The notes: generated by a model not told the origin, from the letters alone. A stretch of 14,231 bases of DNA from Leptolyngbyaceae cyanobacterium (GCA_965263355.1 CBDHHL010000006.1:1-14231), one strand, 5' to 3'. Counted from the first letter of the stretch, positions 1 to 14,231 are shown. Numbers and translations: made by a program.

Positions 1-82
1 CCCACAAGAACTACAGCCCGGCACCCAACTCCAGGTGCCTCACGACACCAACCACACGGAGCCCATACCCAATGACCAATAG
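1..82 (+). CDS. Probable C-terminus of ORF3 (…PPQELQPGTQLQVPHDTNHTEPIPNDQ*) if the window is circular or tandem
   Basis: Joining 14231 to 1 (CC+C) keeps the ORF3 frame open to TAG at 80-82. All three frames are open for ~25 codons here, so the frame match alone is not decisive. Confidence 0.55.
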   Translation, partial: PQELQPGTQLQVPHDTNHTEPIPNDQ

Positions 83-220
83 CAAACATGATTAAATAAA
101 CACCCACACCAACCATTCAATATACACACAATACCCATGTCACACAATACACACATCACACTAAAACACTTGAGCATGCCACTTCCACTAATACAAACCA
201 AATAACCAAACAAATTGTTG

Positions 221-236
221 TCACACTTTCTCTCAG
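221..236 (+). promoter_or_regulatory. Putative 3' splice acceptor for env mRNA
   Basis: Pyrimidine tract tcacactttctctcAG, with a branch-like CACTAAT at 186-192. It is followed in frame by a Met-less signal peptide. Confidence 0.65.
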
Positions 237-2966
237 CGCCCTCTAACCACACTATTCTTACAGCTTTCCACTGCCATTGTGGTCGCACAAGCATTCACTG
301 CTTATGATTGCGCCCACAATAACATCACGGCCACCATCATTGACCTGACAGAACCGGACCACTGCGCCACCCTTGACCCAGGCTCCTACTCAGAGACCAA
401 TGTCACAGTGTCTGTGATATCCACTGCCAACAGGCTCACGATACAAGCGGTCCAATGCCGGGTACTCCTCACCCAGAAGGCAGTTTATTGCGGCTCAGGC
501 CATGCCACTTATGGCACCAGATTCCTGGAGATTGAGAAGCCCATCCACATCTCACCCTCCCACTGCACTGACCAGGATGGCCCCATCATAGCCGACGGCC
601 AACCTTACCCAGCCAATACCTTGGACCATGGAGACAAATACTCCACCTCCTATCCACGAGGCAACCTCGACCACGACCACTACTGCGAGACCGAGTCCTT
701 CACCTACAATGGTGTCTCCTTCTCCTCCCACTACGTGGAACAGGTCGCCAGAACAACCAGAGCCTCCATTACAGGGACCTACAATGCCGCCTCGGGCACA
801 GTCACCTTTGGCAACGTCGCCGTCCCCTTCGCCCAGGGCTACCTGCAAGACGTTACCTTGGGCACCATCACTTGGAACACGACCAATGTCCAGTGCAAAT
901 CCACCACGGACATCATCTACAAGGGCAACGCCACCAAACACTCCCCCACGGACACGACGACTGGAGGCATCACGATCATCACCATTGGCAACTCCAACAC
1001 CAAACAATACGGAGCCTTCACCTTGAAGCAACCCATTCCCCTTTGCGGCAAAGCTTGCTTCGCCACACAGCTGGAGGACTTCACTATCTGTTTCACGGAT
1101 ACACCCGAGACCCACTTCGGCACAGACCCACTCCCTACGCTCGACTTCCACAACACGGAAAGGTTGGCTGGAATCCATACCTTCCAGGTCAACCACGCCC
1201 TCACCACCAGGTCCAATTTCCAGGCCATCAATAAGGCCCTTTGCGAAGTCGATGCCAAGACCATTGCCAACAAGCGGCAACACATCCTGGCCACGGATTC
1301 ATCCGCCGCCGTCATGGACCTCTACGGCCCAGGTTACCAGGTCACCAGGGCTGGGGCAGTAGCATATGTGGCCAAATGCGTACCCATTGAGGTTAACATC
1401 TATGAAGAAGCCCACAATTGCACCCAGGAGCTCCCTGTCATTCTACCCGCGGAGTACAAAGACAGGATCCGCTACATGGACCCAGTCACCAAGATAGTCA
1501 CCAGCTATCCCACCTACACGGTCTGTTCAGAGATCATCAGACCCATGATTAAGATCGGCAACACCTGGTACGAATATGGCCCCATCCGCAACTCCTCCAA
1601 CACGTTCAGACCGGCAACCATCACCCCCACGGTGATTACCTCCACGGTCCTCAAACTCAAGCTGTTCCACTTCGAGATAATACTTGCTGCCTCCATCTAC
1701 ACGGAACAGGACAAGGTCGAGTACAACCTGTATATCACACAGATCTCAGCCAGAGCGCCCATAACCTCCTCCATGGTCAACAGCAAGCTTGACTACGCAG
1801 ACAACCCACAAGCGGCTCTGACCTTCGATGACACCTCCTTCAAGTCCCTCAAATCGGCCTTCCTCTTCCTGGTTAACCCCATAGCCTACATCCTGGGAGA
1901 CGTCGGTCAATACTACATGTGGTTCATGTCCTTCCTGCTCTTCTTAGTCATGCTAAAAGTAGCAGCCGAAGGCATTTACCACATCCTCCTCCAGTACTCA
2001 ACCGATGGCTGCGGTACCTGGTGCCTCCTGGCATGGCTCCGCACTTGCTGGAACGTCGCCAAGGCACCTGTAGCCATCAATGATGCCGCCGTAGAACGCT
2101 TGGTGGACGACCACCCGACACAGAACCACATCCAAATTGAGATGACAGACATGGCACTCCCATCCAGAGACATTGAACAGGAAAGAAGAGACTTTGATCC
2201 CAGGGAGTTTGCAAGCCACAGACCTCCCTCCTACACGACGGCAACTGCACCTCCATTGACAAACCTCGTCAGGTACCCCTCCCTGACGTCCCTCACCTCG
2301 GCACGCGCCCTCCAAGCAGCAGTCGACCCCATGCGTGCTGCTGTCACCACGGCAGCCACAACCCTGAGACGACTGCGCTCAGCCTCGCGGGAAACACTGC
2401 GACGCAGAGCAAATTCAGATACCGCCTCCAGAGCATGGTCAGCCACCAGAGACCTCGCCACAAGAGCACGCAGTGCCTCGGCCAGCACGGCGCGCAGCCT
2501 TTCCCGGGCCGCTTCAAGAGCCGCTTCGGAAAGGTCCTTCAGGAATTCCACGGGCTCACTGAACGCAATCAGACGGTCATTCCGCCAGGGCTCCACCAGG
2601 GCCCTGACACAACTCAATGGATCCCTCAGATCCCTAGCAGCGGCCTCCGATCAGACAATCAACACGAGCAGGCGCGCAGCCAGACACGCCTTACACCAGA
2701 TTGAGGACGATGCCCGCAGTACATTCTCCAAAGCGAGCTCCGCAGCCTCCCGCGCCTCCCGCAAGGCCCGGAAGGTTGCTTTCGCTGCAGCCAGACGAGT
2801 CAGAACATCATCCACCCTGGCTTACCGGCTAATCCAACATCCCCAGGACGCTAACGTCCTGACTCTCGCACCTGATGATGCACGTGCCCCGCTCCTGGAC
2901 GCCGAACCACCTAGGAGACCCCCACGCCGCTCTAGACGTGATCGTCACGAGGACACTAGACACTAA
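237..2966 (+). CDS. env: Env-like class III fusion glycoprotein, chuvirus (Jingchuvirales) G-like, with long basic cytoplasmic tail
   Basis: Signal-like RPLTTLFLQLSTAIVVAQA|FTAYDC. Motifs I recognise from chuviral G: AYDC, QCRV..YCG, PGY...AG....KCVPIEV, CxxELPV, C..IRP....WY, IYT. About six N-x-S/T sequons, membrane-proximal FLVNPIA, TM at about 1911-1990. The frame is open from 192 but has no ATG near the start; the track start at 279 is GTG. Confidence 0.88.
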   Translation, partial: RPLTTLFLQLSTAIVVAQAFTAYDCAHNNITATIIDLTEPDHCATLDPGSYSETNVTVSVISTANRLTIQAVQCRVLLTQKAVYCGSGHATYGTRFLEIEKPIHISPSHCTDQDGPIIADGQPYPANTLDHGDKYSTSYPRGNLDHDHYCETESFTYNGVSFSSHYVEQVARTTRASITGTYNAASGTVTFGNVAVPFAQGYLQDVTLGTITWNTTNVQCKSTTDIIYKGNATKHSPTDTTTGGITIITIGNSNTKQYGAFTLKQPIPLCGKACFATQLEDFTICFTDTPETHFGTDPLPTLDFHNTERLAGIHTFQVNHALTTRSNFQAINKALCEVDAKTIANKRQHILATDSSAAVMDLYGPGYQVTRAGAVAYVAKCVPIEVNIYEEAHNCTQELPVILPAEYKDRIRYMDPVTKIVTSYPTYTVCSEIIRPMIKIGNTWYEYGPIRNSSNTFRPATITPTVITSTVLKLKLFHFEIILAASIYTEQDKVEYNLYITQISARAPITSSMVNSKLDYADNPQAALTFDDTSFKSLKSAFLFLVNPIAYILGDVGQYYMWFMSFLLFLVMLKVAAEGIYHILLQYSTDGCGTWCLLAWLRTCWNVAKAPVAINDAAVERLVDDHPTQNHIQIEMTDMALPSRDIEQERRDFDPREFASHRPPSYTTATAPPLTNLVRYPSLTSLTSARALQAAVDPMRAAVTTAATTLRRLRSASRETLRRRANSDTASRAWSATRDLATRARSASASTARSLSRAASRAASERSFRNSTGSLNAIRRSFRQGSTRALTQLNGSLRSLAAASDQTINTSRRAARHALHQIEDDARSTFSKASSAASRASRKARKVAFAAARRVRTSSTLAYRLIQHPQDANVLTLAPDDARAPLLDAEPPRRPPRRSRRDRHEDTRH

Positions 2967-3035
2967 CCCGTGCCTATTGCAGCCACTCTTGCCGCACCGC
3001 CGCCTACGACCTAAAGGCCTACACCGCGCTGCTCC

Positions 3036-3043
3036 GGAGGATT
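3036..3043 (+). other. Possible short polypurine tract (GGAGGAtt) before the LTR
   Basis: Purine run just 5' of TGTGA at 3044 and about 70 nt after the env stop. It is shorter than a typical PPT. Confidence 0.4.
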
Positions 3044-3138
3044 TGTGAGCAGCTGCAACACGACGATCATTACACACAACAAGGACATAACACACACGGA
3101 AGAAGACGCATACGAACACAACCCTTTCACGCTGGAAG

Positions 3139-3180
3139 CTATATACACATATACATATATACACATATTACATACACACG
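3139..3180. repeat. Degenerate (TA/CA)n low-complexity tract in U3
   Basis: ctatatacacatatacatatatacacatattacatacacacg. Confidence 0.6.
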
Positions 3181-3198
3181 TTACATGACCTTTTACAC

Positions 3199-3212
3199 AA
3201 TAAAAGTCAGTC
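3199..3212 (+). promoter_or_regulatory. Poly(A) signal AATAAA followed by initiator-like TCAGTC
   Basis: AATAAA at 3199-3204 and TCAGTC at 3207-3212. This matches the TCAGTY initiator known from invertebrate gypsy-like LTRs with short R regions. Confidence 0.6.
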
Positions 3213-3531
3213 TTGACAACACGCTAAAACAGTTCACACGTTTCATGCGTTATCGTATATATTCTTATTCCTAAGTGCATTTATTCCGTGATATCTATCC
3301 GTCAACATAGGTAACTATATTCATAAGTATAAGTATATTAGGATACCAGTAAAGCGATGGTATCCACATATACGTGATTAGGTCTCTTGACCTATAGCTA
3401 GGATACAAGGCCTGATAAAGCGATATCTCCCTTTATCAGACCCGACCTAAAGGCGCCGAGGTTACATAACGTCCTCACACGCCTTAAGTGATCATTACCC
3501 CTTCCTTAGGGAGATAGGGTAAGATCACAAA

Positions 3532-3544
3532 TGGTGGCAGCGGT
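3532..3544 (+). other. Primer binding site, complementary to the 3' end of tRNA-Leu
   Basis: TGGTGGCAGCGGT is the reverse complement of ACCGCTGCCA-CCA, the 3' end of metazoan tRNA-Leu(AAG-type) as I recall it. It lies 2 nt after the LTR-terminal CA. Confidence 0.85.
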
Positions 3545-3891
3545 TTTAAACAACCCATGCCATTATTTTCCCCTCAAATATTGCTCACGCTACCACTTAA
3601 CATTCCAATTTATTTTCCGTTAGCTACAAGCTAGCTTCTGTGAGAAAATACTGCATTTATAATGCATTTCCTCCCAACGGTCGCCCTATATTTCTTAAAT
3701 TAGGTGGTCATTCCAAGCTACTTCTTTTCATTTCCGCCATACTAAACTCCCCATGTATAGAGATCATCGGCATCCAACACGTGGTGTCAGCTAATGCAGG
3801 CAAACATCCGCTAGCATTACCCCACCATGTGCTTGTGTGCTGAGCCCCGCTTTTGAGCCAGTGTGATGTAAAACAGGGCGCCAAATTTAAA

Positions 3892-4290
3892 CGTCTGGGA
3901 CGGTGCTTTCTTCAAAGCGAAACTGACTGTGTGTCAACAGGGGAGGCTGTGTGCCTCCTCTGGATCTCTTAGCCGGGCTAATTGATCAATCGGGTAGCAA
4001 CAACCGAGATGCTCTGGGAGCATCCTATAGGACGCCAGTTTTCTCCTCCTATAGTAACAGCATGTGTGTACTGGGTGCACACCACACAATAGAGCACTGT
4101 GTGTGCATTGTGTGACAATTTGTATACACGGGGTGTATACGGTGCTTCCTCTCTGGGAGAGGAGCTAGTCGGGGACTAGCCATGCTCTGCGTGTGCACAT
4201 TATACTGTACCGGGTACAGTGCGCTGTGTGCGCGGCTGTGTGCCGAATGAGTGATGCTATGCATCTCCCTTGGGACCTCTAATGTCCCCA
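3892..4290 (+). other. Dense stem-loop array in the 5' leader (candidate packaging signal)
   Basis: More than 15 adjacent inverted repeats; eight have C-[T/C/G]GG-G loops and five have C-TGTGT-G loops. Confidence 0.8.
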
Positions 4291-4886
4291 TCCTTGCTGG
4301 TCGCTGTCAGAAAACGGGTGCGCCCTGAAAAGTGGAACATGCCTATATGCATAGCTACAGCCCTCTTATCTAACACGGCCTACCTATGCATCATAGTGCA
4401 CGGTCTCTCTATACATAATGAGTAGTCACTGGCATCTTAACATTGCCTCTAACAATTAACATTCAGTCTCTCTGACCCCTCCAAACTGTTCACGCATCTT
4501 GACCACCCACCATGCAACTTCCAACCCTCCCTCTTGCTCTAATTATAGTAAGCGACCGTTAAGACATATGCTTCAGCACATTATATTTAACCCTTCTTTC
4601 TTAGGTTCAGCGCACTCTTTACACGCGCGGGCTTTTCCCTAAGAAAGTTATAAAAACCCTTCTACCACTTTCCTAACTCTTAATTGTTTCCACACACTCA
4701 CACTTCACATACTAACACCAGAATCGCTTTTCTGATTCTGTCCCATAAGCCTTGGCTTATACTCAACACGATCCAGCTATAATTCCACGAAGTGTCCCCC
4801 ATACAAGGTCCAATCAGTAGCCGTCGCAAGCTGCCAGATCGCTACCAATATACGATCCGAGGTCTCTGACCTCCCAACTTTAACCT

Positions 4887-4977
4887 ACTGATCCAGCACA
4901 CTGCTCAAGAGTAGCGGTCTATCAGTATCCACTTCCCACTGATCCAGCACACTGCTCAAGAGTAGCGGTCTATCAGT
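4887..4977 (+). repeat. Perfect 40-bp direct repeat x2 (4887-4926, 4938-4977), each able to fold as a hairpin
   Basis: actgatccagcacactgctcaagagtagcggtctatcagt occurs twice with an 11-nt spacer and ends 6 nt before the gag ATG. Confidence 0.95.
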
Positions 4978-4983
4978 GCAAAG

Positions 4984-6228
4984 ATGAACGACCACGAGAG
5001 AGCCATTTACGCCGATAAGCTTGCCCTCAAGCAAGCTTATGCGCCGTTCCCTGTACTGTCCACCACGGATCCCACCGACTTCAAACGTTGGAGGGATTCC
5101 TTCACAGAGATCGCTATCCTCAACCGCACCAGGGAGCAGGACGCTGTCCGTGCTGCCAGGAACAACCTAAAAGGTGCGGCTTTGCAAAGAGCCAAGCAGA
5201 TTGTTCCAATCATCACAGACGATGACCCCTATACAGGCACTAAACTGTCGCAGTACATGTTTTGCCTGTCCAAGGCCTTCTTGGATGATGCTTCCCCTGC
5301 CAGGAACCTCAAACTGTTCCAAACGGCAGCACAAAAGCACGGCGAAGATTTCCACGACTTGGCTGTGAGGATCAAGACCTACTACATGGAGGCTTATCCC
5401 ACAGCCAACCACGATAACATAGAGGCAAACACCCTCGTGATTGACCGCTATGTGGATGCCATTAAGGACCTCAGCATTCAGCAGTCCTTACTCTCTGTGC
5501 AGAAGCCAACCATATCGGCCACGTCCCAGATTGCATACCGGTTGCGGCAATCCGTCTTGCAATCTTACATCAGCTGTGCACCAGACAAGATCCTCGAGCT
5601 CCAGCGGTTGAGACCGTTCCTCTTCATCTCTCCTGAGGAAATTTCAGGCTTGCCAGGCCACCAAACCTACCAACAGGACCAGTCAATCAACCAAATGGCT
5701 CCCCCACCAGCACCCCCACAGGCGCCAACTGCAGCAACCCCTGCAACACCAGCAAGTGAACCTATTCCACCGGCACAGCCTCAGCCATCAACATCTTTCA
5801 ATATAGATCCAACCCAGCTGCAGGCAGCCCTCGGCATTCAAGCTTTCATGAATGCTGCTACCAGATCCCCTCAGAAGTCAACCTCCAGAGGCCAGGGAAG
5901 ACCAAAGCCGCGCCAACAGTCGCGCACCGACCTCTCAACGGTCACCTGCTACAACTGTGGCACCAAGGGGCATCTGGCTAGAAATTGCACCAGGCCCAAA
6001 CCAAATTCCTCAGTCAGGCTGGTCCTCCCCAGACGGTCAAGCAACCAGTCAGGCAGAAATTCCACTGCTAGAAAGTCTTTCCATAACAAGCTCAGGCAGA
6101 GGATCAACGCCCTCTCAGCTGAGGACTTCGGCAGATTCGCTGAATCCATCAGCAATCTGGAATACACAAGTGATCCAGAAGCCTCGGACATCACTGACGA
6201 GGAGTCCGACGCAGAGCAGGGAAACTAG
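4984..6228 (+). CDS. gag: Gag (capsid plus single CCHC nucleocapsid knuckle), 414 aa
   Basis: MHR-like QKHGEDFHDLAVRIKTYYMEAYP, Pro-rich linker, CYNCGTKGHLARNC (5947-5988), basic then acidic C-terminus, located upstream of pol. Confidence 0.93.
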   Translation: MNDHERAIYADKLALKQAYAPFPVLSTTDPTDFKRWRDSFTEIAILNRTREQDAVRAARNNLKGAALQRAKQIVPIITDDDPYTGTKLSQYMFCLSKAFLDDASPARNLKLFQTAAQKHGEDFHDLAVRIKTYYMEAYPTANHDNIEANTLVIDRYVDAIKDLSIQQSLLSVQKPTISATSQIAYRLRQSVLQSYISCAPDKILELQRLRPFLFISPEEISGLPGHQTYQQDQSINQMAPPPAPPQAPTAATPATPASEPIPPAQPQPSTSFNIDPTQLQAALGIQAFMNAATRSPQKSTSRGQGRPKPRQQSRTDLSTVTCYNCGTKGHLARNCTRPKPNSSVRLVLPRRSSNQSGRNSTARKSFHNKLRQRINALSAEDFGRFAESISNLEYTSDPEASDITDEESDAEQGN

Positions 6229-6250
6229 ATCAGCCGGGTTCCACCCGGCT
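6219..6250 (+). promoter_or_regulatory. -1 programmed ribosomal frameshift signal
   Basis: Slippery G_GGA_AAC (6219-6225) in the gag frame directly before TAG, a 6-nt spacer, then an 8-bp stem AGCCGGGT-tcc-ACCCGGCT (6232-6250). The -1 frame is open from 6198 into pol. Confidence 0.9.
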
Positions 6251-9200
6251 ACCTTCACCCGCAATAACCCAGATCCAGGACACCAATACATACGAATCTG
6301 ACTCTGGTGCAGAAGATGACTCAGACAATGCTGATGAACAAGACACTACCAACAATGACACAGAGGAAGACCCAGAGGCTACGGCCTTCATCTCTCACTT
6401 GCAACAACTTCCACATGCCATTAGGCATAAGGAGACTGATACGGAGGCCCGTAAGGCTAAGACCTTCAGGAAGTTCTTACGCTGTTCAGTGGACGGCCAC
6501 ACTGTCAACGGCCTCGTGGACGGTGGCAACACCTGGCACTCATGCATCTCCGAAAACTTCATGAAAGTTTTAGGATGGAAGAAGACAGACCTCCTACCCA
6601 CCAAGTATTGCAATGTAAATACGGCCAAGAAGGGATCCTCTATCAAGTCCCTCGGACAGTTGCCAAGGCCCTTGACCCTAACTCCTTCCAACGGAGGCAC
6701 ACCTATACAGTTCCAGCCCATGGTCATGAGATCGTTGTCCACTTCACTCAATATCTCAGGACCTTTGCTCGAACTTTGCGGTATCGATCACCTCACCTCC
6801 AAGGGTGCCCTCAATTGGAGAGGCAAAAGGATCCCACTCCTCAACAGACCCAGTCTCAAGGACTCAGCAGCTATTTCCATCCTCGAGACAGCCACACTTC
6901 CACCAAAGTCCCTCAAGTTAGTCCTAGGAGTCTGCCCAGACACAATCAACTCAACCTTTGCATCTGGCACTGTAGTGGTTGAAGGAGACAAGTTATTAGC
7001 AGAGGAAACCAACCTAGCGCCTGCCAGGAATGCCCTCTGCACAATTACACCAGAGGGCTCCGTCTATGTGCCCCTTATCAACCCACATCACTACCCCATT
7101 ACCATCAAGAACGGTACCTTCTATGGGCGAGCTCACCTCACCAAAACCACGCTGCTCAGTAATGGCATCCAGTCCATATCCATGGTCTCTGACTCAGCTG
7201 ATGACTCAGGTTATGACAGCGAGGACGAGGATACCCCACAGGACATCAAGTATTTTGAGAACCTCCCGGAGGACCCAGAAACAAACCCCTCTGACCAATA
7301 CACCAATTGGTCTGATGACCAGAAGAAACAATGGTTCCTGGACACATACAAGTTAGACACCAGGCCCTGCTTCAAAACTCAACACCAGTTGAACCTGGCA
7401 CTAGACACCCTCACCAAACACTTTGACCTTTTCTCCAAGGACGGCTCCTATGGCTTCAGTGACCTCATCACCCATAGAATCATAACGGACGACGTCCAGC
7501 CTGTCAAGGACAAACTGCGACCCTGTAATCCACTGCTACAAGACTCACTCAAGGCACAACTAGAGAAATGGGACAAACATGGAGTCATCGAGCCCTCATA
7601 CTCCCCATGGGCGGCCAATGTTGTCCCAGTTAAGAAGAAAGACAACTCCATCCGCTGGTGTATTGACTACCGCAAACTCAATGCGGTTACTAAGAAGGAC
7701 AGCTTCCCCATGCCCAGCGTCTCGGAAACATTCAACGCTTTGGCAGGATCCTGTCTCTTCTCCAGTGTAGATATGGAAGGAGCATTCCACTCTGTGGCGA
7801 TTCACCCAGCTGACAGGGAGAAGACAGCCTTTATCACGCCATTTGGAACATTCCAGATGAAGAAACTGGGCTTTGGAGTTAGCAATGGCCCTGCAACATA
7901 CTGCAGGCTCATACAGATGGTTCTCAGAGGAATCCCCTCATCCATTGCTTTGGGATTCCTCGACGACGGAATTATTCATTCCAATGATGTCGAGACCCAT
8001 TGCCAAAACCTTGACAGAGTCTTCACAGCATATGCCAACGCTGGGCTCAAAATCAACCCAAAGAAGTGCTCATTATTCATGGAAGAAATCAACTACCTGG
8101 GCCATACAATCAACCAGCACGGCGTCAGACCACCAGCAGAGTACATCGACCAGATCAAAACATGGCCAGTCCCTGACTCTCCAAAGAAGATACGGCGCTT
8201 TCTGGGAATGGTCGGCTACTACAGAAACCATATCCCCGATTACGCTCTTCTCTCAGCCCCATGGACAGACGCCTTGAAGAAAGACAACGTCAAAAAGAAG
8301 ATCAAGCCCACACCTGAGATGATTGCCAACTTTGACAAACTCAAAGAGAAACTCACCACGGCACCCATACTGGGTTTCCCATACTTCCATGGACCAAAGG
8401 CGGGCACCTTCATCCTCGACACAGACTTTTCCTGCAAACAGATCAGCGGGATCCTCTCACAGATCCAGGATGGACAGGAAGTGGTCATAGCTTACGGCTC
8501 CAAAAAGCTAGACAGTGGTCAACAAAACTACCCATCCACAAAAGGGGAGCTGTTCGCTGGCAAACACTTCATGCAGAAATATGCATTCTACCTCAAGTGG
8601 TGCCAACAGTTCACCTGGAGGACCGATAACTCAGCCCTCCAATGGCTGAACAGTATGCAAGACCCGCCCAGTATCATCTACCGGTGGCGAGAAGTACTCA
8701 GGGACTTCAACTTCAAGGTGGTTCACAGGGCAGGAACCAAGCACACCAATGCTGACTGCTTATCGCGAGTGGAATTCGATCAACCACCACCCAAGAAACC
8801 TAAGCTCCAGACAGAAGACCAAAACACCCTGCCGGAGGACCACAAAACCCTGCCGGAGGACCACAACTCCCTGCCGGAGGACCACAATTCCCTGCCGGAG
8901 GACGCCACAGTCGCAGCCCTAGCCAATGATGCGGATTCACTGTCTTACAAACCACAGGAACCCACATGGCAAGACCTCCTCCAGCCCACAGCTCCACCTC
9001 CTCCAAACCAACTCATGAAGCGCATCACTGACCTCATTCCAGTCAGTATGGAGGACGAACAGCAGAAGTGCTCCACCCTCAGTATGGTTCGCAAATGGAT
9101 TAGAGGCATTGACAAACCAGATAGGCTCATGCAGCGATGCTTAACCCCAAACCAGAAGAAGTACTTAGGCACCCTCTCCTCCCTCAAACTCATACAGAGA

Positions 9201-10766
9201 GGAAAGGAACATGTATTGTGCTCCCTGTATCTCAAAGATGACGGTACTGTCCCACACTACCAAATCTGCCTCCCAGAACACCTCTGGGTACCGGTCATCC
9301 AAGCAGCACACACCCTCAATGGTCACATGTCGCATCAAAGTACCCTGGACCGTCTCAAAACCCTGGTGCATTTTCCAAACATGTCTAAAATGGTGAAGCA
9401 AGTTATTCACTCGTGCCAACCATGCATAACCAAACACAAGACAGCCAAGCCCCAGAAGCACACGCTCATTTCCAGTATGCCTCCCTATCCGTTCCACACC
9501 ATCCACGTGGACTTTGTTGGCCCCATTTACAAGTCATCGCAGGGGAACCAATACATATTCACGGTCAAAGACGCTTTCTCACGATGGGTGGAAGCATTTC
9601 CCATGAAGGAAGCCACAGCCAACAACGCAGCCTTCTGCCTGGAAACACAAGTATTCCCACGTTTCGGTCTTCCCCAAAGGATACACTCAGATTGTGGTTC
9701 ACAATTCACAAGTAACTTCTGGAAGCAGTTAGGAGAACAACTTAATATCAAGATCTCCTACACCACTCCATACCACCCCCAATCAAACGGGATGGTTGAA
9801 CGCTTCCACAGGGACCTTGGGAAGATGCTGGCCGCCACCAACAAAGGCGGCTCAGAAGACTGGGAACAAGGCCTTCCAGCCGCACTGATGGCTCTCAGAT
9901 CCGCAAAATCCAGAACCACGAATCTGAGCCCTTACTCAATATTGTTTGGCCGGGAAATGTCTCTGCCACTAGACCTGATTTTCGCACTCCCTGATAAGGA
10001 TACTGAACACATCACAGATGCTAAGGCTAGAGCCTTCACAATCAGGAAGAGGATCAACCGGGCCTATGAGTGTGCCATTATACACGCCCATAGAGCTGTA
10101 GAGAGGCAGAGACGTTCTTACCACCAGGACAAACAATATTTCACCGTTGGCCAAAAGGTGTGGCTTTACACTCCCAAGACATTCGACAGAGGCCCAACCA
10201 AGTTGAAAACTAGATGGTCCGGTCCCTGGACAGTCTGCGCACCACCGGGCAATGAGATTATGATCCGCATCTCACCCATGGCAGGTTGGCAGTTCAAACA
10301 TTCCATAGTGGTCGCCATTGACAGACTCAAGCTGTACACAGGAGAGAACCCCATAGAGCCTGACCCCTCTTCTGACCTACAAATGACCGGTGATGAATTT
10401 GCAGAGGAACTAGACCCTGCGGAGTTCGAGTGGAACAACGACCACTCTGTCGACCTTGAGACCTACAAACACCTCATGCCAGTGCTCACAGGGCCTTCAC
10501 CTTACCCAGATGACACATTAGACGACGGTGATCAAGCACGACCTGGCACACCCCCTCAACATAGTGATATTCAAACAAACATTAGTCAAACCAATACTAG
10601 TCCAACACAGACACAAGTGCAGTGCCCAAATAAAGCCCCTACACCAATTCAAACAGTGCTGACCAGTGTTACATATCCCATAGTTTCTGTACAACTCTTT
10701 CCACCAATCATCAGCAATATGAAATATAAGCCAAAGATCCCATCCGCTTCCAGCCGGAAGAATTAG
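6219..10766 (+). CDS. pol: Pol polyprotein: aspartic protease, reverse transcriptase, RNase H, integrase (made as Gag-Pol, ~1,930 aa)
   Basis: PR LVDGGN. RT SPWAANVV..KK, RWCIDYRKLN, FG...PAT, FLDD, YLGH. RH LDTDFS, KGEL, TDNSAL, NADCLSR. IN H-x4-H..CQPC, VDFVGP, SDCGSQF, NGMVER, GPW. The track start at 6399 is TTG; the frame opens at 6198. Confidence 0.97.
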   Translation, partial: GKLDQPGSTRLPSPAITQIQDTNTYESDSGAEDDSDNADEQDTTNNDTEEDPEATAFISHLQQLPHAIRHKETDTEARKAKTFRKFLRCSVDGHTVNGLVDGGNTWHSCISENFMKVLGWKKTDLLPTKYCNVNTAKKGSSIKSLGQLPRPLTLTPSNGGTPIQFQPMVMRSLSTSLNISGPLLELCGIDHLTSKGALNWRGKRIPLLNRPSLKDSAAISILETATLPPKSLKLVLGVCPDTINSTFASGTVVVEGDKLLAEETNLAPARNALCTITPEGSVYVPLINPHHYPITIKNGTFYGRAHLTKTTLLSNGIQSISMVSDSADDSGYDSEDEDTPQDIKYFENLPEDPETNPSDQYTNWSDDQKKQWFLDTYKLDTRPCFKTQHQLNLALDTLTKHFDLFSKDGSYGFSDLITHRIITDDVQPVKDKLRPCNPLLQDSLKAQLEKWDKHGVIEPSYSPWAANVVPVKKKDNSIRWCIDYRKLNAVTKKDSFPMPSVSETFNALAGSCLFSSVDMEGAFHSVAIHPADREKTAFITPFGTFQMKKLGFGVSNGPATYCRLIQMVLRGIPSSIALGFLDDGIIHSNDVETHCQNLDRVFTAYANAGLKINPKKCSLFMEEINYLGHTINQHGVRPPAEYIDQIKTWPVPDSPKKIRRFLGMVGYYRNHIPDYALLSAPWTDALKKDNVKKKIKPTPEMIANFDKLKEKLTTAPILGFPYFHGPKAGTFILDTDFSCKQISGILSQIQDGQEVVIAYGSKKLDSGQQNYPSTKGELFAGKHFMQKYAFYLKWCQQFTWRTDNSALQWLNSMQDPPSIIYRWREVLRDFNFKVVHRAGTKHTNADCLSRVEFDQPPPKKPKLQTEDQNTLPEDHKTLPEDHNSLPEDHNSLPEDATVAALANDADSLSYKPQEPTWQDLLQPTAPPPPNQLMKRITDLIPVSMEDEQQKCSTLSMVRKWIRGIDKPDRLMQRCLTPNQKKYLGTLSSLKLIQRGKEHVLCSLYLKDDGTVPHYQICLPEHLWVPVIQAAHTLNGHMSHQSTLDRLKTLVHFPNMSKMVKQVIHSCQPCITKHKTAKPQKHTLISSMPPYPFHTIHVDFVGPIYKSSQGNQYIFTVKDAFSRWVEAFPMKEATANNAAFCLETQVFPRFGLPQRIHSDCGSQFTSNFWKQLGEQLNIKISYTTPYHPQSNGMVERFHRDLGKMLAATNKGGSEDWEQGLPAALMALRSAKSRTTNLSPYSILFGREMSLPLDLIFALPDKDTEHITDAKARAFTIRKRINRAYECAIIHAHRAVERQRRSYHQDKQYFTVGQKVWLYTPKTFDRGPTKLKTRWSGPWTVCAPPGNEIMIRISPMAGWQFKHSIVVAIDRLKLYTGENPIEPDPSSDLQMTGDEFAEELDPAEFEWNNDHSVDLETYKHLMPVLTGPSPYPDDTLDDGDQARPGTPPQHSDIQTNISQTNTSPTQTQVQCPNKAPTPIQTVLTSVTYPIVSVQLFPPIISNMKYKPKIPSASSRKN
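8814..8903 (+). repeat. In-frame 21-bp tandem repeat (~4.3 units, LPEDH[K/N][T/S]) in the RNase H-integrase linker
   Basis: Core ccctgccggaggac at 8827, 8848, 8869 and 8890. Confidence 0.95.
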
Positions 10767-10902
10767 CTAACCCTCTTACCATTTATATTCCAGTGTTTGT
10801 TTCTGCATACCTCCACTGCCATCCACCACCACATACACAAGCCTTCGCTGATCGCTTTCCCCTGTTCCAATACACAGTACAGCAACCAACCAAATCACTA
10901 CC

Positions 10903-13900
10903 ATGGAGTTCAACCCCAATGCCACCGACTTCATCTCCGGAGTCTCCAACGCTGAGCTGGTCAACAACACCATGTTGACCCAATCCACCTCCGTAGCCCC
11001 TACCACCTTCGAGCTCACCGCCGTGAGCTCCCCCATGGAGATGACCAGGCACGGGGCTGTAGCCGCCATGACGGCTGCAGGCTCGATCCAGCCGGACCCA
11101 GCCTTCCCGTCTCTGCAGGAGACCGTGACCCGTCACGCCAGTGCGGCTTTCGCTGCAGCCCAGGGATCAATCCAGCCAGATCCCACATTCCCCAGCCTGG
11201 ATGATAAGCGGAACCAGCTTATCGCCAACGCGGACCCCCTCCTCCGCCCAGCCCACATGAGGACCCCAACCAAACCACCCCAGCAGCACGTGGTTAAAAC
11301 AGCCTCCCAACTGGTCAGGGAGCTGTACACCAGCCAGCCAAGGGACCCCATGTCAACCCCACCCCACAAAAAGAGGGCCTTCGAGTACCAGGAGTCCGAC
11401 TTCCCCTCACTCCATGACCTGACTACCAAAGGAGTGATGGAGAGGCCGGGGTACTCGACCATGAATCTCCAGAGAGCCAGAGCCAGGGACACCGAGTCCA
11501 ACTCAACCCAGTCCCCTCCCACAACGGTCCCTCACTCGCCGGCCCCTTACACACCCAGGGCAGTCAACTCAAACCTGACCCCCTTAGGTACACCCAACAA
11601 GAGACATTTGGGCAGCAGGGACTCCAACATCTCAATCGAGCCCCTCCACCAAACCAACCAGGCTATCCAGGCCTCCCAGCAAAGCCTGCTAAGGACTTCG
11701 GAGGACCTCGGAAGGACGGCCGACACAACCGTCTCCAAGCTCTCCAACCTTAGTGACCTCGTTGCCAAGCAAATCCCGGAGGCGCTTACGCAACTCACCA
11801 ACCTCAACCAGGAAATTGCCAGCAAGACTAGCCAGCTGCACGATCTGGAGCTCTCTCTGGCCACAACCAGATCGCCCAGGGCCTCTCACTCAAGATCAGG
11901 CTCCTTCTCTAGACCATCGAGGTCAAGGAACCCCTCCACGAGCTCCAAGACCCGCTCGCCCTCGGCCTCCCCAGCTACCCGCAGCCGCAACAAGTCCCTC
12001 CAGGAGGACTTAGACAGATTGAGATCTCGCATCGAGGAGAAGACAACCAAAATCGATGCTCTCAACAGCCAAGAACGATCTCTCCAAGACAGGCTATCCA
12101 AGTCAAAGAAGGCCAAACAAGAAGCAGACTCCGCTGTCAACGTGGCTCGCCGTACCAAAATTGACGTCGACACAGAGGTTAAGTCACTCAAGAAAGAGAA
12201 GGAAAACCTCCTTAAGACCATCTCAGAGCTTCGATGCAAGGAGGCAGCCTTGGAGTCCCGCAAGAAGGACGACGATGATGCCGCCGCTGCAGCCCAGGCG
12301 GTCAAGAAGGAAACAGAGAGTCTGAACAACAAGATCGCAGACCTCAAAGCGACCCTTGCCAGACTTGGCGCCGACAAGCGAAACTTGGAAACCACCTTGG
12401 CGGCGCATAACCTCGAGGTTACCACACAGAGGTCAAACCTCCATGACCTCAACCAGCAGCTATCCCAAGCTGCAGTCAACTTGCGGAGGACCAAAGAAGA
12501 TCATATAGCCGCCTCCAATGAACTCAATGCCATTAACGCTGCCATTACCGAGGCCAGAACGGCATATGAACAAGAACAAGAAGCCAGACAACAGCAGATG
12601 ACCACTACCGATAACCAGATTGCGGAACTACAACAACACCTCGTGGCCCTCCAGCAGCAATATGACACCCAGAAACAGCAGATGACCGCGCAGATCGACA
12701 GCCTCCGGGCTGACACTGACAAGCTTCAGCGCCAAAACAAAGAAGCAGCTGAGTCCCTCAGCGACACACTGTCCTCCAACTCGGCCTCCCTACAAAATTC
12801 GGCCATTAAACAATCCAACGAGCTCAACGCTGAGTTGGAGGCAGTCAGAAACAAGGTGGGTGCAGCCAAAATGCGCCTCACCCAAGTCAATAAGGAGCTC
12901 ACACAGGCCACCACCGACCTCCAGAAAGTGCAAGCCGACAAAAATTCAACAGAGGATGACCTAAGTATCACCAAGTCCAGACTGGACTTAGAGTGCAAGA
13001 AACTACACGACGTCCTCCATGCTCTCGACAGCACCAAGACCAGCCACGAAAATTCCAAGACGGCCCTCAACAAGGCCACCGCAGAATTAGACAAGGTCAC
13101 CAGAGCAGTGCAGGACAAAACTAAGGATCACCAGAACTTGACAGCCCAGGTCTCCAAAGCCAGATCCACCCTGCAAGAGCTCTCGTCAGACATCACTATG
13201 GCCCGCAAAAACCCCATAGTGCCAGCACCACTCTCCCCCATACCAATGGCACACCCCTCCATGATGATGGAGTTTGATGATGCCACTAACTCATGGGTTA
13301 GGCCGCAAGGACTGCCAGTCACACCAGGCAAGTCCATCCCCACACAGCCTCACTCAAGCAGCAACACGGTGACTGTCAACCCCACCATAACCATTCAGGC
13401 CCCAGCTGCAAGAGATGGCGAGGCCAATATTGCCCACCAGGCCGCAGCTTTCTTTGCACAAGCGGGCAAAGATCTAACCACATATGTGAATCATGAAATT
13501 ACGCAGTCCCAGGCCCTCCTAGCCAATCAGATCCAGACCATGAATGCCACTATAGCAGACATGAAGACAACGGCACTTAAGCACTTTGAGGTCCAGAAGG
13601 CGACTTATGCGCAACATTTCAACGACCTTGAGGCCATGCAGGTCCAATTCAATCAGCAGAAAGATACAGAAGCTGCAATCCAAATCGGCCAACTCAAAGA
13701 GACCTTGACAGAAGAATTTAAAGCGACAAGACAAGTTGACTTACTGGAACCACAAATTGCCAAGCAGCAAACCCAGATCACCCTCCTACAGAATGCACTC
13801 AAAGAAATAGACCGACTCCTCAAGGCCCAACAGAGCAAGAAACCAGGCAAAGGCAGTAAAAAGACTCAGCACATCGCAGAGAAACAGCTCCAGATAGCCT

Positions 13901-14231
13901 CACAACTGGAGCTCCAGGACATTGACGCCAATGCCACTGAGGATGACCTAGCCCGAAACCAGACCAAGCTGTACAGGACCATCAATAACAAGATCGAAGA
14001 CCAACATGCCAGGGTCACGAGAGTAATGGAGGATCTGCGCAACGACATCCACGATCCTAACACTCTATTCTCCATCGACCCGAAGACAGTGGCTCACAAA
14101 AGGCCTAGGGATATCTCTACTGACACCACAATAGGCAAGCCTCCTGCCAAGATTACACCAACAGTGGACACTTCAAGAGTACCACAAGAGCATCTTGCCT
14201 CCGTGCAAGAAACATTATCCAAGTTACACCC
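10903..14231 (+). CDS. ORF3: large accessory protein (>=1,109 aa) with disordered N-terminus, RS-rich patch and long coiled coils; runs off the window end
   Basis: Hand translation from ACC-ATG-G (strong Kozak; upstream in-frame TGA at 10849) finds no stop to 14231. It begins MEFNPNATDFISG. Heptad-rich Q/E/K/L/A stretches lie at about 11990-13200 and 13480-14050. It is presumably absent from the ORF track because it has no stop codon. Confidence 0.9.
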   Translation, partial: MEFNPNATDFISGVSNAELVNNTMLTQSTSVAPTTFELTAVSSPMEMTRHGAVAAMTAAGSIQPDPAFPSLQETVTRHASAAFAAAQGSIQPDPTFPSLDDKRNQLIANADPLLRPAHMRTPTKPPQQHVVKTASQLVRELYTSQPRDPMSTPPHKKRAFEYQESDFPSLHDLTTKGVMERPGYSTMNLQRARARDTESNSTQSPPTTVPHSPAPYTPRAVNSNLTPLGTPNKRHLGSRDSNISIEPLHQTNQAIQASQQSLLRTSEDLGRTADTTVSKLSNLSDLVAKQIPEALTQLTNLNQEIASKTSQLHDLELSLATTRSPRASHSRSGSFSRPSRSRNPSTSSKTRSPSASPATRSRNKSLQEDLDRLRSRIEEKTTKIDALNSQERSLQDRLSKSKKAKQEADSAVNVARRTKIDVDTEVKSLKKEKENLLKTISELRCKEAALESRKKDDDDAAAAAQAVKKETESLNNKIADLKATLARLGADKRNLETTLAAHNLEVTTQRSNLHDLNQQLSQAAVNLRRTKEDHIAASNELNAINAAITEARTAYEQEQEARQQQMTTTDNQIAELQQHLVALQQQYDTQKQQMTAQIDSLRADTDKLQRQNKEAAESLSDTLSSNSASLQNSAIKQSNELNAELEAVRNKVGAAKMRLTQVNKELTQATTDLQKVQADKNSTEDDLSITKSRLDLECKKLHDVLHALDSTKTSHENSKTALNKATAELDKVTRAVQDKTKDHQNLTAQVSKARSTLQELSSDITMARKNPIVPAPLSPIPMAHPSMMMEFDDATNSWVRPQGLPVTPGKSIPTQPHSSSNTVTVNPTITIQAPAARDGEANIAHQAAAFFAQAGKDLTTYVNHEITQSQALLANQIQTMNATIADMKTTALKHFEVQKATYAQHFNDLEAMQVQFNQQKDTEAAIQIGQLKETLTEEFKATRQVDLLEPQIAKQQTQITLLQNALKEIDRLLKAQQSKKPGKGSKKTQHIAEKQLQIASQLELQDIDANATEDDLARNQTKLYRTINNKIEDQHARVTRVMEDLRNDIHDPNTLFSIDPKTVAHKRPRDISTDTTIGKPPAKITPTVDTSRVPQEHLASVQETLSKLH

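Follow-up and report, generated by a model that had tools for sequence, protein, structure and literature searches.

A giant heptad-rich gene between pol and a chuvirus-type env in what is probably a recently amplified four-gene Ty3/Gypsy element

The stretch of DNA analysed here is a single contig of 14,231 bp (GCA_965263355.1, CBDHHL010000006.1:1-14231), and by the window we mean that whole stretch. As written it presents env, a non-coding region, gag, pol and a further large open reading frame (ORF), ORF3, all on the plus strand, and it raises the question of what kind of element would carry a Ty3/Gypsy-type pol, a chuvirus-like glycoprotein and a separate giant gene, and which part of that combination is new. 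We consider it highly probable that the window is one repeat unit of a recently amplified, four-gene Ty3/Gypsy (Metaviridae) element of about 14.7 kb whose Env belongs to Pfam family PF24664. The pairing of a Gypsy pol with a chuvirus-like env is already in print, and the new part is ORF3.

The first step is the gene order. The window comprises one whole contig whose end joins its own start: when contigs from three DNA-type runs (X1-X3) and one RNA run (X4) were aligned on it, a joint going back from 14228 to 1, with a 3-base overlap, was present in two contigs of X1, one of X2, two of X3 and none of X4, and CCC stands at the window's end and again at its start. A direct-repeat scan found no second long terminal repeat (LTR) and no long direct repeat within the window, so only one LTR can be present. 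The env-first order is an assembly artefact of collapsed LTRs; the contig is circularly permuted because the assembler collapsed both of them, and the true order is 5' LTR, primer-binding site (PBS), 1.45-kb leader, gag, pol, ORF3, env, 3' LTR. The repeat unit of 14,228 bp plus an LTR of 486 bp gives a full copy of about 14.7 kb.

In the window, ORF3 is linked to env by the joint 14228 to 1, and the same linkage recurs in related copies: a 6,711-bp contig is on record with both a complete ORF3 (P0019) and 744 aa of env (P0009), and a 19,564-bp contig with part of ORF3 (P0021) and two parts of env (P0015, P0016). For pol (P0024) and env (P0005), the contig recorded has 17,982 bp. One X3 contig is unbroken over 2970-3794, from the end of env through the LTR into the leader, and a second over 10320-11084, from the end of pol into ORF3. 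By the joint, the first of these X3 contigs and the shared contigs, the viral-type env ORF lies within the same LTR pair as gag-pol. A further X3 contig joins gag (5939) to ORF3 (13144) with nine other letters between, and is an internally deleted, non-autonomous derivative without pol.

All four genes are open over lengths that are improbable by chance. In a stop-to-stop scan with the standard code, the log10 probability of staying open by base composition is -12.8 for env, -6.7 for gag, -28.4 for pol and -16.5 for ORF3, and the other two plus-strand frames of the same four stretches hold 8-70 stops each (41 and 46 for ORF3). No Pfam family was found in any of five overlapping or minus-strand ORFs tested. 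Among the 40 best-supported variants, 28 are coding, and because all 28 are synonymous (env 21, gag 2, pol 2, ORF3 3, the signal for ORF3 thus coming from three variant sites only), all four genes were under purifying selection while the sampled copies diverged; the remaining 12 variants are non-coding.

The pol gene (1,522 codons, 6198-10766) is of Ty3/Gypsy type. It encodes a protease-like motif at residue 108 (LVDGGN, with the DGG codons at 6519-6527), reverse transcriptase (RVT_1, residues 478-638, 7629-8111), RNase H (RT_RNaseH, residues 705-837, 8310-8708), the integrase zinc domain (Integrase_H2C2, residues 1026-1078, 9273-9431) and the integrase core (rve, residues 1098-1194, 9489-9779), which is the Ty3/Gypsy order, with integrase after reverse transcriptase. 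Its best sequence matches in the PDB are the Ty3 Gag-Pol (7q5b, 3e-82) and Ty3 reverse transcriptase (4ol8, 3e-62), followed at a distance by caulimovirus (4.8e-38), foamy virus integrase (4e-32) and gammaretroviral reverse transcriptase (1e-23). No BEL/Pao family of Pfam occurs in pol, which is thus not of the BEL/Pao type. A protein search returned 1,839 relatives, and the domain set is identical in all 120 matches listed; among those listed, the nearest non-self relatives are metagenome proteins at 50-52% identity, and the best of those with a name, which align over roughly half of the query at 33-38% identity, come from a pseudoscorpion. The gag gene (414 aa, 4984-6228 from its ATG at 4984, within an ORF open stop to stop over 4966-6228) encodes a single CCHC zinc knuckle (5944-5991; zf-CCHC, 8.5e-07), and its PDB sequence matches are retroviral nucleocapsids. 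The two genes meet at a -1 frameshift signal (6219-6248): the end of gag reads GGG AAA C TAG, with the classical slippery heptamer GGGAAAC at 6219-6225 and the gag stop at 6226-6228, and a perfect 6-bp hairpin (CCGGGT/ACCCGG, 6234-6248) follows eight bases past the heptamer. The pol frame is -1 relative to gag, with an overlap of 6198-6228.

The env-like ORF covers 924 codons from stop to stop (192-2966). Its layout would suit a type I membrane glycoprotein, except that a start codon in frame, to which we return, is absent from this copy: a hydrophobic, signal-peptide-like stretch (237-293), an ectodomain with 14 cysteines (294-1847) and a hydrophobic anchor (residues 553-600, 1848-1991), after which comes a tail of 324 aa rich in A, R and S (1992-2963). 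Its match to PF24664 (Monjiviricetes_fusion), over 243-2045, has an E-value of 1.4e-52 and 179 bits against a cut-off of 27, and takes in profile positions 5-593 of 653; glycoproteins of this family occur in Jingchuvirales-like RNA viruses. BLASTP also finds similarity (E 7e-19; 466 aa aligned, 22% identical) to a glycoprotein encoded on the IMG/VR viral contig L001. The alignment begins exactly in the region where the signal peptide would be cleaved, and that glycoprotein is itself a core member of PF24664 (6.7e-260, 864 bits). The cysteine pattern is common to the env parts of P0094 and P0098, which are Gypsy elements with 39% identity in pol (two of the 120 pol relatives listed) in which one ORF runs from pol to a PF24664 env and nothing separates the two. 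Family membership leads us to expect a gB/G-like (class III) fusogen, and a language-model search, which we treat as a lead only, placed PF24664 clusters at 18 of 30 neighbours, some of them also gB or rhabdovirus G. Env matches PF24664 only and is not of the F type (class I, baculovirus F-like) that marks Errantivirus in the narrow sense. A word-based protein search with env found its own cluster only, a PDB sequence search gave 0 matches, and nothing was found with env as query in the genome contig and viral contig collections.

Several side observations attach to these glycoproteins. The last 284 residues of the env tail contain 50 A, 49 R, 36 S and 27 T, and the tail is much longer than the post-anchor region of the L001 glycoprotein or of the env parts of P0094 and P0098. 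In the latter two, the single ORF is about 2,520 aa long and a proline-rich linker joins pol to env; either env is fused in frame to pol, or a prokaryotic gene finder made a read-through call. The viral contig L001 holds a second ORF (2390-3703, 438 aa) without a Pfam family, which, going by the gene order of chuviruses, may be a nucleoprotein.

The initial annotation had described four long plus-strand ORFs, a Ty3/Gypsy pol, a chuvirus-type glycoprotein as env and a separate gene of more than 1,100 aa between pol and env, and all of this agrees with what we find, the last of these as a gene of 1,135 aa read through the joint and matched by P0019. Its further view, that the ORFs and the cis-signals are intact, holds in part: all four ORFs are open and LTR ends, PBS and frameshift signal are in place, but the candidate polypurine tract (PPT) has six purines, only one LTR and no target-site duplication are visible, the protease has DGG instead of DSG and env lacks an in-frame ATG. 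Several of these points, with others, weigh against our reading of the window. Neither a target-site duplication, nor a second LTR copy, nor a full-length genomic copy was seen in the data. The shared contigs of the protein pairs (P0019/P0009, P0024/P0005, P0021/P0015/P0016) are inferred from equal contig sizes, and the 40 best-supported variants are a subset chosen by the tool, with 692 more beyond it. The protease motif reads DGG (LVDGGNTW), whereas most relatives have DSG. An AlphaFold2 model of the env ectodomain, from an alignment of eight near-identical rows, had a predicted local distance difference test score (pLDDT) of 27 and was unusable. There is no in-frame ATG near the env N-terminus in the window, and six of the 14 members of the env cluster (P0013, which is the window's own, P0005, P0008, P0009, P0012 and P0018) were called from internal GTG starts. 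No splice junctions were seen, the RNA run X4 consisting of nine small contigs of which none bridges one; X4 holds a small share of words, DNA carry-over is possible, and we do not use it as evidence for expression or habitat. As for the protease, DSG occurs in 12 of the 14 relatives that have the motif in the part examined, and since P0052 and P0058 share DGG with the window, DGG may be a lineage trait rather than a lesion.

The missing env start gives rise to the alternative that survives best, namely that the element is as it looks but its env is already dead in this subfamily, the ancestral start codon having gone out of frame. Copies would then spread as ordinary intracellular retrotransposons or be helped in trans, and the long env ORF would still be open only because the copies are young. 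We regard this as possible, if doubtful. Upstream of env in the window lies a short ORF (137-205) with ATGs at 137 and 176, in a frame other than that of env, which ends at a stop at 203-205. A diverged copy (P0014, 92% identical to the window env over 417 aa) starts MPQPLIQHK and continues in frame into the env signal peptide, and the window's out-of-frame upstream peptide reads MPLPLIQTK before its stop; the start of P0014 is thus the upstream ATG (the peptide of the second ATG) that is out of frame in the window. In the window copy, then, the frame of the ancestral start diverges from that of the env body between about 200 and 215. Since an X2 contig covers 1-982 with 0 gaps against the window, the missing start is not an error of the window alone, and the full-length env copies, at 98-100% identity, have had little time for decay. 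Against this alternative, all 21 listed env variants are synonymous, which indicates constraint while the sampled copies diverged, and the copy of P0014 type is interrupted too, at a later point, with P0014 and P0006 on one 24,898-bp contig. In addition, two candidate 3' splice sites, each a pyrimidine tract with CAG (222-263; CAG at 234-236 and 261-263), keep env in phase 0, so that splicing could provide a start from a first exon. The choice is thus between an env disabled in this young subfamily and one whose start comes from such an exon, and the missing start weakens the label infectious. An ATG at 3185 with a donor-like site at 3206, giving MTFYTIK in phase to env, was considered as such an exon; it is speculative, overlaps the AATAAA signal and was not adopted.

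With the four-gene reading retained, we turn to the gene that makes the element unusual. ORF3 (10903-14231, continued at 1-82) begins at an ATG in the strong context ACCATGG at 10903, in a frame open from 10852, 136 nt past the pol stop and in a different frame from pol. Its C-terminal 26 codons lie across the joint and end at the stop TAG at 80-82, bases 1-3 repeating 14229-14231. The resulting length, 1,135 aa, is that of the sister copy P0019, whose C-terminus matches the wrapped translation. HMMER found four relatives among 1.84 billion representative proteins: P0020 (64-66% identity over the shared region, the last third being best conserved; encoded on a record of 45,833 bp), P0021 (83% identity, N-terminal part), P0022 (a fragment) and P0023, which is colinear, 1,156 aa long and 25-31% identical, has shared motifs and lies on a contig of 14,470 bp. 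There is also a copy at 94% identity. Because 1,135 codons are open and related copies exist, the colinear P0023 among them, ORF3 is a real gene.

The protein is mostly helical and rich in heptads. Residues 1-260 are rich in P, S and T and include three FPSL motifs, a stretch at about residues 326-364 is RS-rich, and six heptad-rich segments (260-325, 357-696, 707-773, 860-900, 936-980 and 1018-1058; together about 600 aa) lie above the 99th percentile of shuffles in a home-made heptad score, so that ORF3 has the long heptad-periodic helical segments expected of a coiled coil. A conserved linker (MMEFDD, VNPTITIQ) and a C-terminal tail with KRPR at 1066 complete the architecture. AlphaFold2 modelled residues 786-1126 as long helices at pLDDT 60-79 (mean 54), and Foldseek with this C-terminal model found no PDB structure at E <= 0.001, only generic helical bundles. 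ORF3 has no Pfam family above cut-off, 0 sequence matches in the PDB and no usable match in the ESM Atlas, and alignments against metagenome, genome and viral contig collections found nothing. The FPSL motifs stand in the disordered N-terminus at residues 68, 96 and 167 (DPAFPSL, DPTFPSL and SDFPSL; 11104-11412 in the window) and are absent from the distant relative P0023; we take them to resemble short viral late-budding motifs.

A gene with so few relatives might be carried along as a passenger of no use to the element, either captured from the host or a foreign source or newly arisen as an ORF. In keeping with this, ORF3 lacks a Pfam family, evolves faster than env (94% against 98% identity to the nearest cluster) and is missing from P0094 and P0098, in which env directly follows pol. 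We nevertheless think it improbable, for P0023 keeps the architecture and motifs at 25-31% identity on a contig near the size of this unit, P0020, which overall is 66% identical to ORF3, shows high conservation of the C-terminal third, all three listed ORF3 variants are synonymous, and none of the four relatives resembles a cellular gene family. As to what a gene under such constraint would do, our best guess, held with somewhat less than even conviction, is that ORF3 is a helical protein that associates with itself and serves as a scaffold or adaptor when particles assemble or exit. A distinctly less favoured second choice would be a CERV- or Rev-like handling of unspliced RNA, for which the grounds are the RS-rich stretch, the KRPR motif and the analogy with CERV of the Cer1 element, and these only; the rest of our belief is split between host antagonism and no function at all.

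Large additions behind integrase are also seen elsewhere in this pol clade. The pol ORFs of P0027, P0052 and P0058 (43-50% identity) extend 850-1,000 aa past integrase into disordered, P/G- and S-rich tails with some coiled-coil-like stretches by eye; these tails have neither a transmembrane segment nor a Pfam family, and hhalign detected no similarity between the ORF3 profile and the tails of P0027 and P0058. The post-integrase region seems to be a hot spot for such additions.

That the contig is a chimera, with gag-pol and ORF3-env of two elements joined through a shared or similar LTR, might be imagined for a collapsed circular path with one LTR only, in data where many related Gypsy families coexist, but it is very improbable indeed, given sequencing depth of one order over all 30 bins in each of three runs, the two unbroken X3 contigs at the end of env and the end of pol, the common 17,982-bp contig size of pol and env copies, and the deleted copy that links gag directly to ORF3.

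For the four-gene element, a cycle like that of Ty3/gypsy elements with an env (errantiviruses in the wide sense) is the most likely. A full-length RNA driven by the LTR would serve as genome and mRNA; Gag would be translated directly from it, and Gag-Pol after ribosomes slip into the -1 frame at GGGAAAC, immediately ahead of the gag stop. A Leu-type tRNA would prime reverse transcription. ORF3 and env would come from subgenomic, probably spliced, mRNAs, because they lie in other frames, stops precede them, acceptor-like sites are present upstream and ORF3s of LTR elements are stated typically to come from spliced messages (PMC5408684). The acceptor-like site for ORF3 is a candidate 3' splice site at 10770-10793, a pyrimidine tract with CAG at 10791-10793, recognised by its letters. 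Env, going by its family, would be a type I membrane glycoprotein and the fusogen for entry into neighbouring cells, and ORF3 an orphan, mostly helical, heptad-rich accessory protein.

The cis-signals accord with such a cycle. The LTR (3044-3529, 486 bp) has the inverted ends TGTGA...TCACA, and contig ends fall at both of its borders: one contig has a loose end before 3042 and another begins at 3044, and behind 3529 three X2 and two X3 contigs have loose ends whose flanks disagree with one another. Within it lie a TATA-like run (3140-3179) and an AATAAA (3199-3204). The PBS, TGGTGGCAGCGG, stands 2 nt past the LTR (3532-3543) and is of tRNA-Leu type; it is probably an exact match to the 3' end of animal tRNA-Leu(AAG). 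As its reverse complement, the same 12-mer occurs in 11 rows of supplementary file 1 of PMC13524379; nine of these rows name tRNA-Leu (one mismatch) and the other two tRNA-Thr (two mismatches). Directly 5' of the LTR is a weak candidate PPT, GGAGGA (3036-3043). The element thus has the TG...CA-ended LTR and the PBS of a Ty3/Gypsy element, with a candidate PPT only six purines long. In the window, Rfam families and ARAGORN tRNAs both numbered 0.

The leader (3530-4983, 1.45 kb) has no ORF of 100 aa or more. Between 3963 and 4220 it contains about seven short perfect hairpins with stems of 5-8 bp and (U/G)GG loops, for example GUAUACAC-GGG-GUGUAUAC and GCUAGUC-GGG-GACUAGC, and RNA 3950-4260 folds with z = -3.68, 0 of 100 shuffles being as good. 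Exposed G-rich loops are bound by retroviral zinc-knuckle nucleocapsids, and the hairpin array is therefore a candidate packaging signal. Immediately ahead of the gag ATG is a 51-nt tandem duplication (4884-4977) whose 43-nt cores are 98% identical, and a joint from 4930 to 4981 in X1 and X3 contigs drops one unit, so that the copy number of the 51-nt unit differs between insertions. Behind 4090, all of the X1 depth carries 26 additional nt that neither X2 nor X3 has; this insertion is a length variant of the leader between samples or subfamilies. Elsewhere, a 21-nt tandem repeat of about five units (8807-8911), between RNase H and integrase, codes for LPEDH(K/N)(T/S). The plus strand has more C than G and more A than T in coding and non-coding parts alike, with GC skew from -0.12 to -0.37 and AT skew up to +0.41.

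Gypsy elements with an env are nowadays viewed as ancient, widespread retroviruses of invertebrates, and they are described as having three genes. A conserved fourth gene, sized like the enzymatic core of pol, would show that accessory functions evolve among them as in complex retroviruses, and that surveys which limit the distance between pol and env undercount such elements. With hardly a relative to its name, ORF3 offers a handle on what such elements need beyond Gag, Pol and Env, be it an assembly scaffold, egress, RNA export or host antagonism. The interest is tempered by the start-less env; at the same time, an env without a start in the most abundant subfamily is a natural case in which to ask whether env is kept or shed during amplification. 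More tentatively still, ORF3 may mark an unseen lineage of complex metaviruses, enveloped Ty3/Gypsy elements whose cycle depends not only on gag, pol and a chuvirus/gB-type env but also on a giant coiled-coil protein that is conserved, a proposal we think rather unlikely. Were it true, ORF3 might be a tegument-like adaptor between the capsid and the unusually long Env tail, or might handle RNA in the manner of CERV; such a lineage would be old, its two branches being 25-30% identical yet alike in protein length and in a unit of about 14.2-14.5 kb; and published surveys of env-carrying elements would have missed it owing to their limit on the gap between pol and env.

How, then, does this element compare with known systems? 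With Drosophila gypsy, ZAM and Idefix, which express env from a subgenomic message, it shares gag, a frameshifted pol and the endogenous-retrovirus lifestyle. Those elements, however, have three genes and an env of the F type (baculovirus/paramyxovirus-like; PMC13524379), and there are four genes here. The closer parallel is the set of 114 gypsy elements with a Chuviridae-like, gB-like env reported by Chary & Hayashi (eLife 2026, PMC13524379), who describe env of the herpes simplex virus (HSV)/gB type in Ty3/gypsy elements across metazoans and note a structural resemblance of the Chuviridae-like glycoprotein to gB, which lends indirect support to the class III expectation for env. As in those elements, a Gypsy gag-pol is followed within LTRs by a gB/chuvirus-type env, in multiple near-identical copies, and the Leu-type 12-nt PBS is that of 11 of them, including ENV_HSV elements of Daphnia and Ceriodaphnia. 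Unlike them, this element has a 3.4-kb extra gene between pol and env and hence a gap of about 3.7 kb, together with a leader of 1.45 kb and an env tail of 324 aa. The search rule given in that paper allowed at most 1,000 nt between POL and ENV and no other arrangements, so its survey would have missed the gap seen here. The ENV-GAG-POL elements of oribatid mites in the same paper do not account for the env-first order of the window, as the two Medioppia rows are of F type and the order here is a permutation artefact. The initial annotation had not recognised a Gypsy pol paired with a chuvirus-like fusogen; the 114 elements, as well as P0094 and P0098, overturn that part of its claim to an unrecognised layout, and ORF3 between pol and env is the part that stands.

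The mosquito element Anakin (Dezordi et al. 2020, PMC7642597) is likewise an LTR retroelement with a Jingchuvirales-type glycoprotein as env; its pol is BEL/Pao, whereas here a Ty3/Gypsy pol and the additional ORF3 are found, and a 2023 paper from the same group reports Gypsy fragments near such glycoproteins with no clear capture. For ORF3 itself, the nearest counterparts are CERV of Cer1 in C. elegans (PMC10309623), which self-assembles into large rods and is phospho-regulated, and the ORF3s of bdelloid rotifer LTR elements, including types marked only by coiled-coil motifs (PMC5408684): all are lineage-specific non-env ORFs downstream of pol, expressed there from spliced mRNA. CERV, however, has 517 aa, shares exons with gag and replaces env, whereas ORF3 has 1,135 aa and is free-standing beside a viral-type env. 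A review (PMC6431247) speaks in general terms of additional ORFs located between pol and env. Sequence similarity of ORF3 to CERV or to the rotifer ORF3s was not detected, its family consisting of the four relatives, and a literature search of limited breadth found no description of a Gypsy element in which a large conserved gene separates pol from a viral-type env. Extra genes in the interval between pol and env, expressed from spliced RNAs, are a feature of Retroviridae. Those genes are small regulators; here the same interval holds one very large, structural-looking protein, in an element of the Metaviridae.

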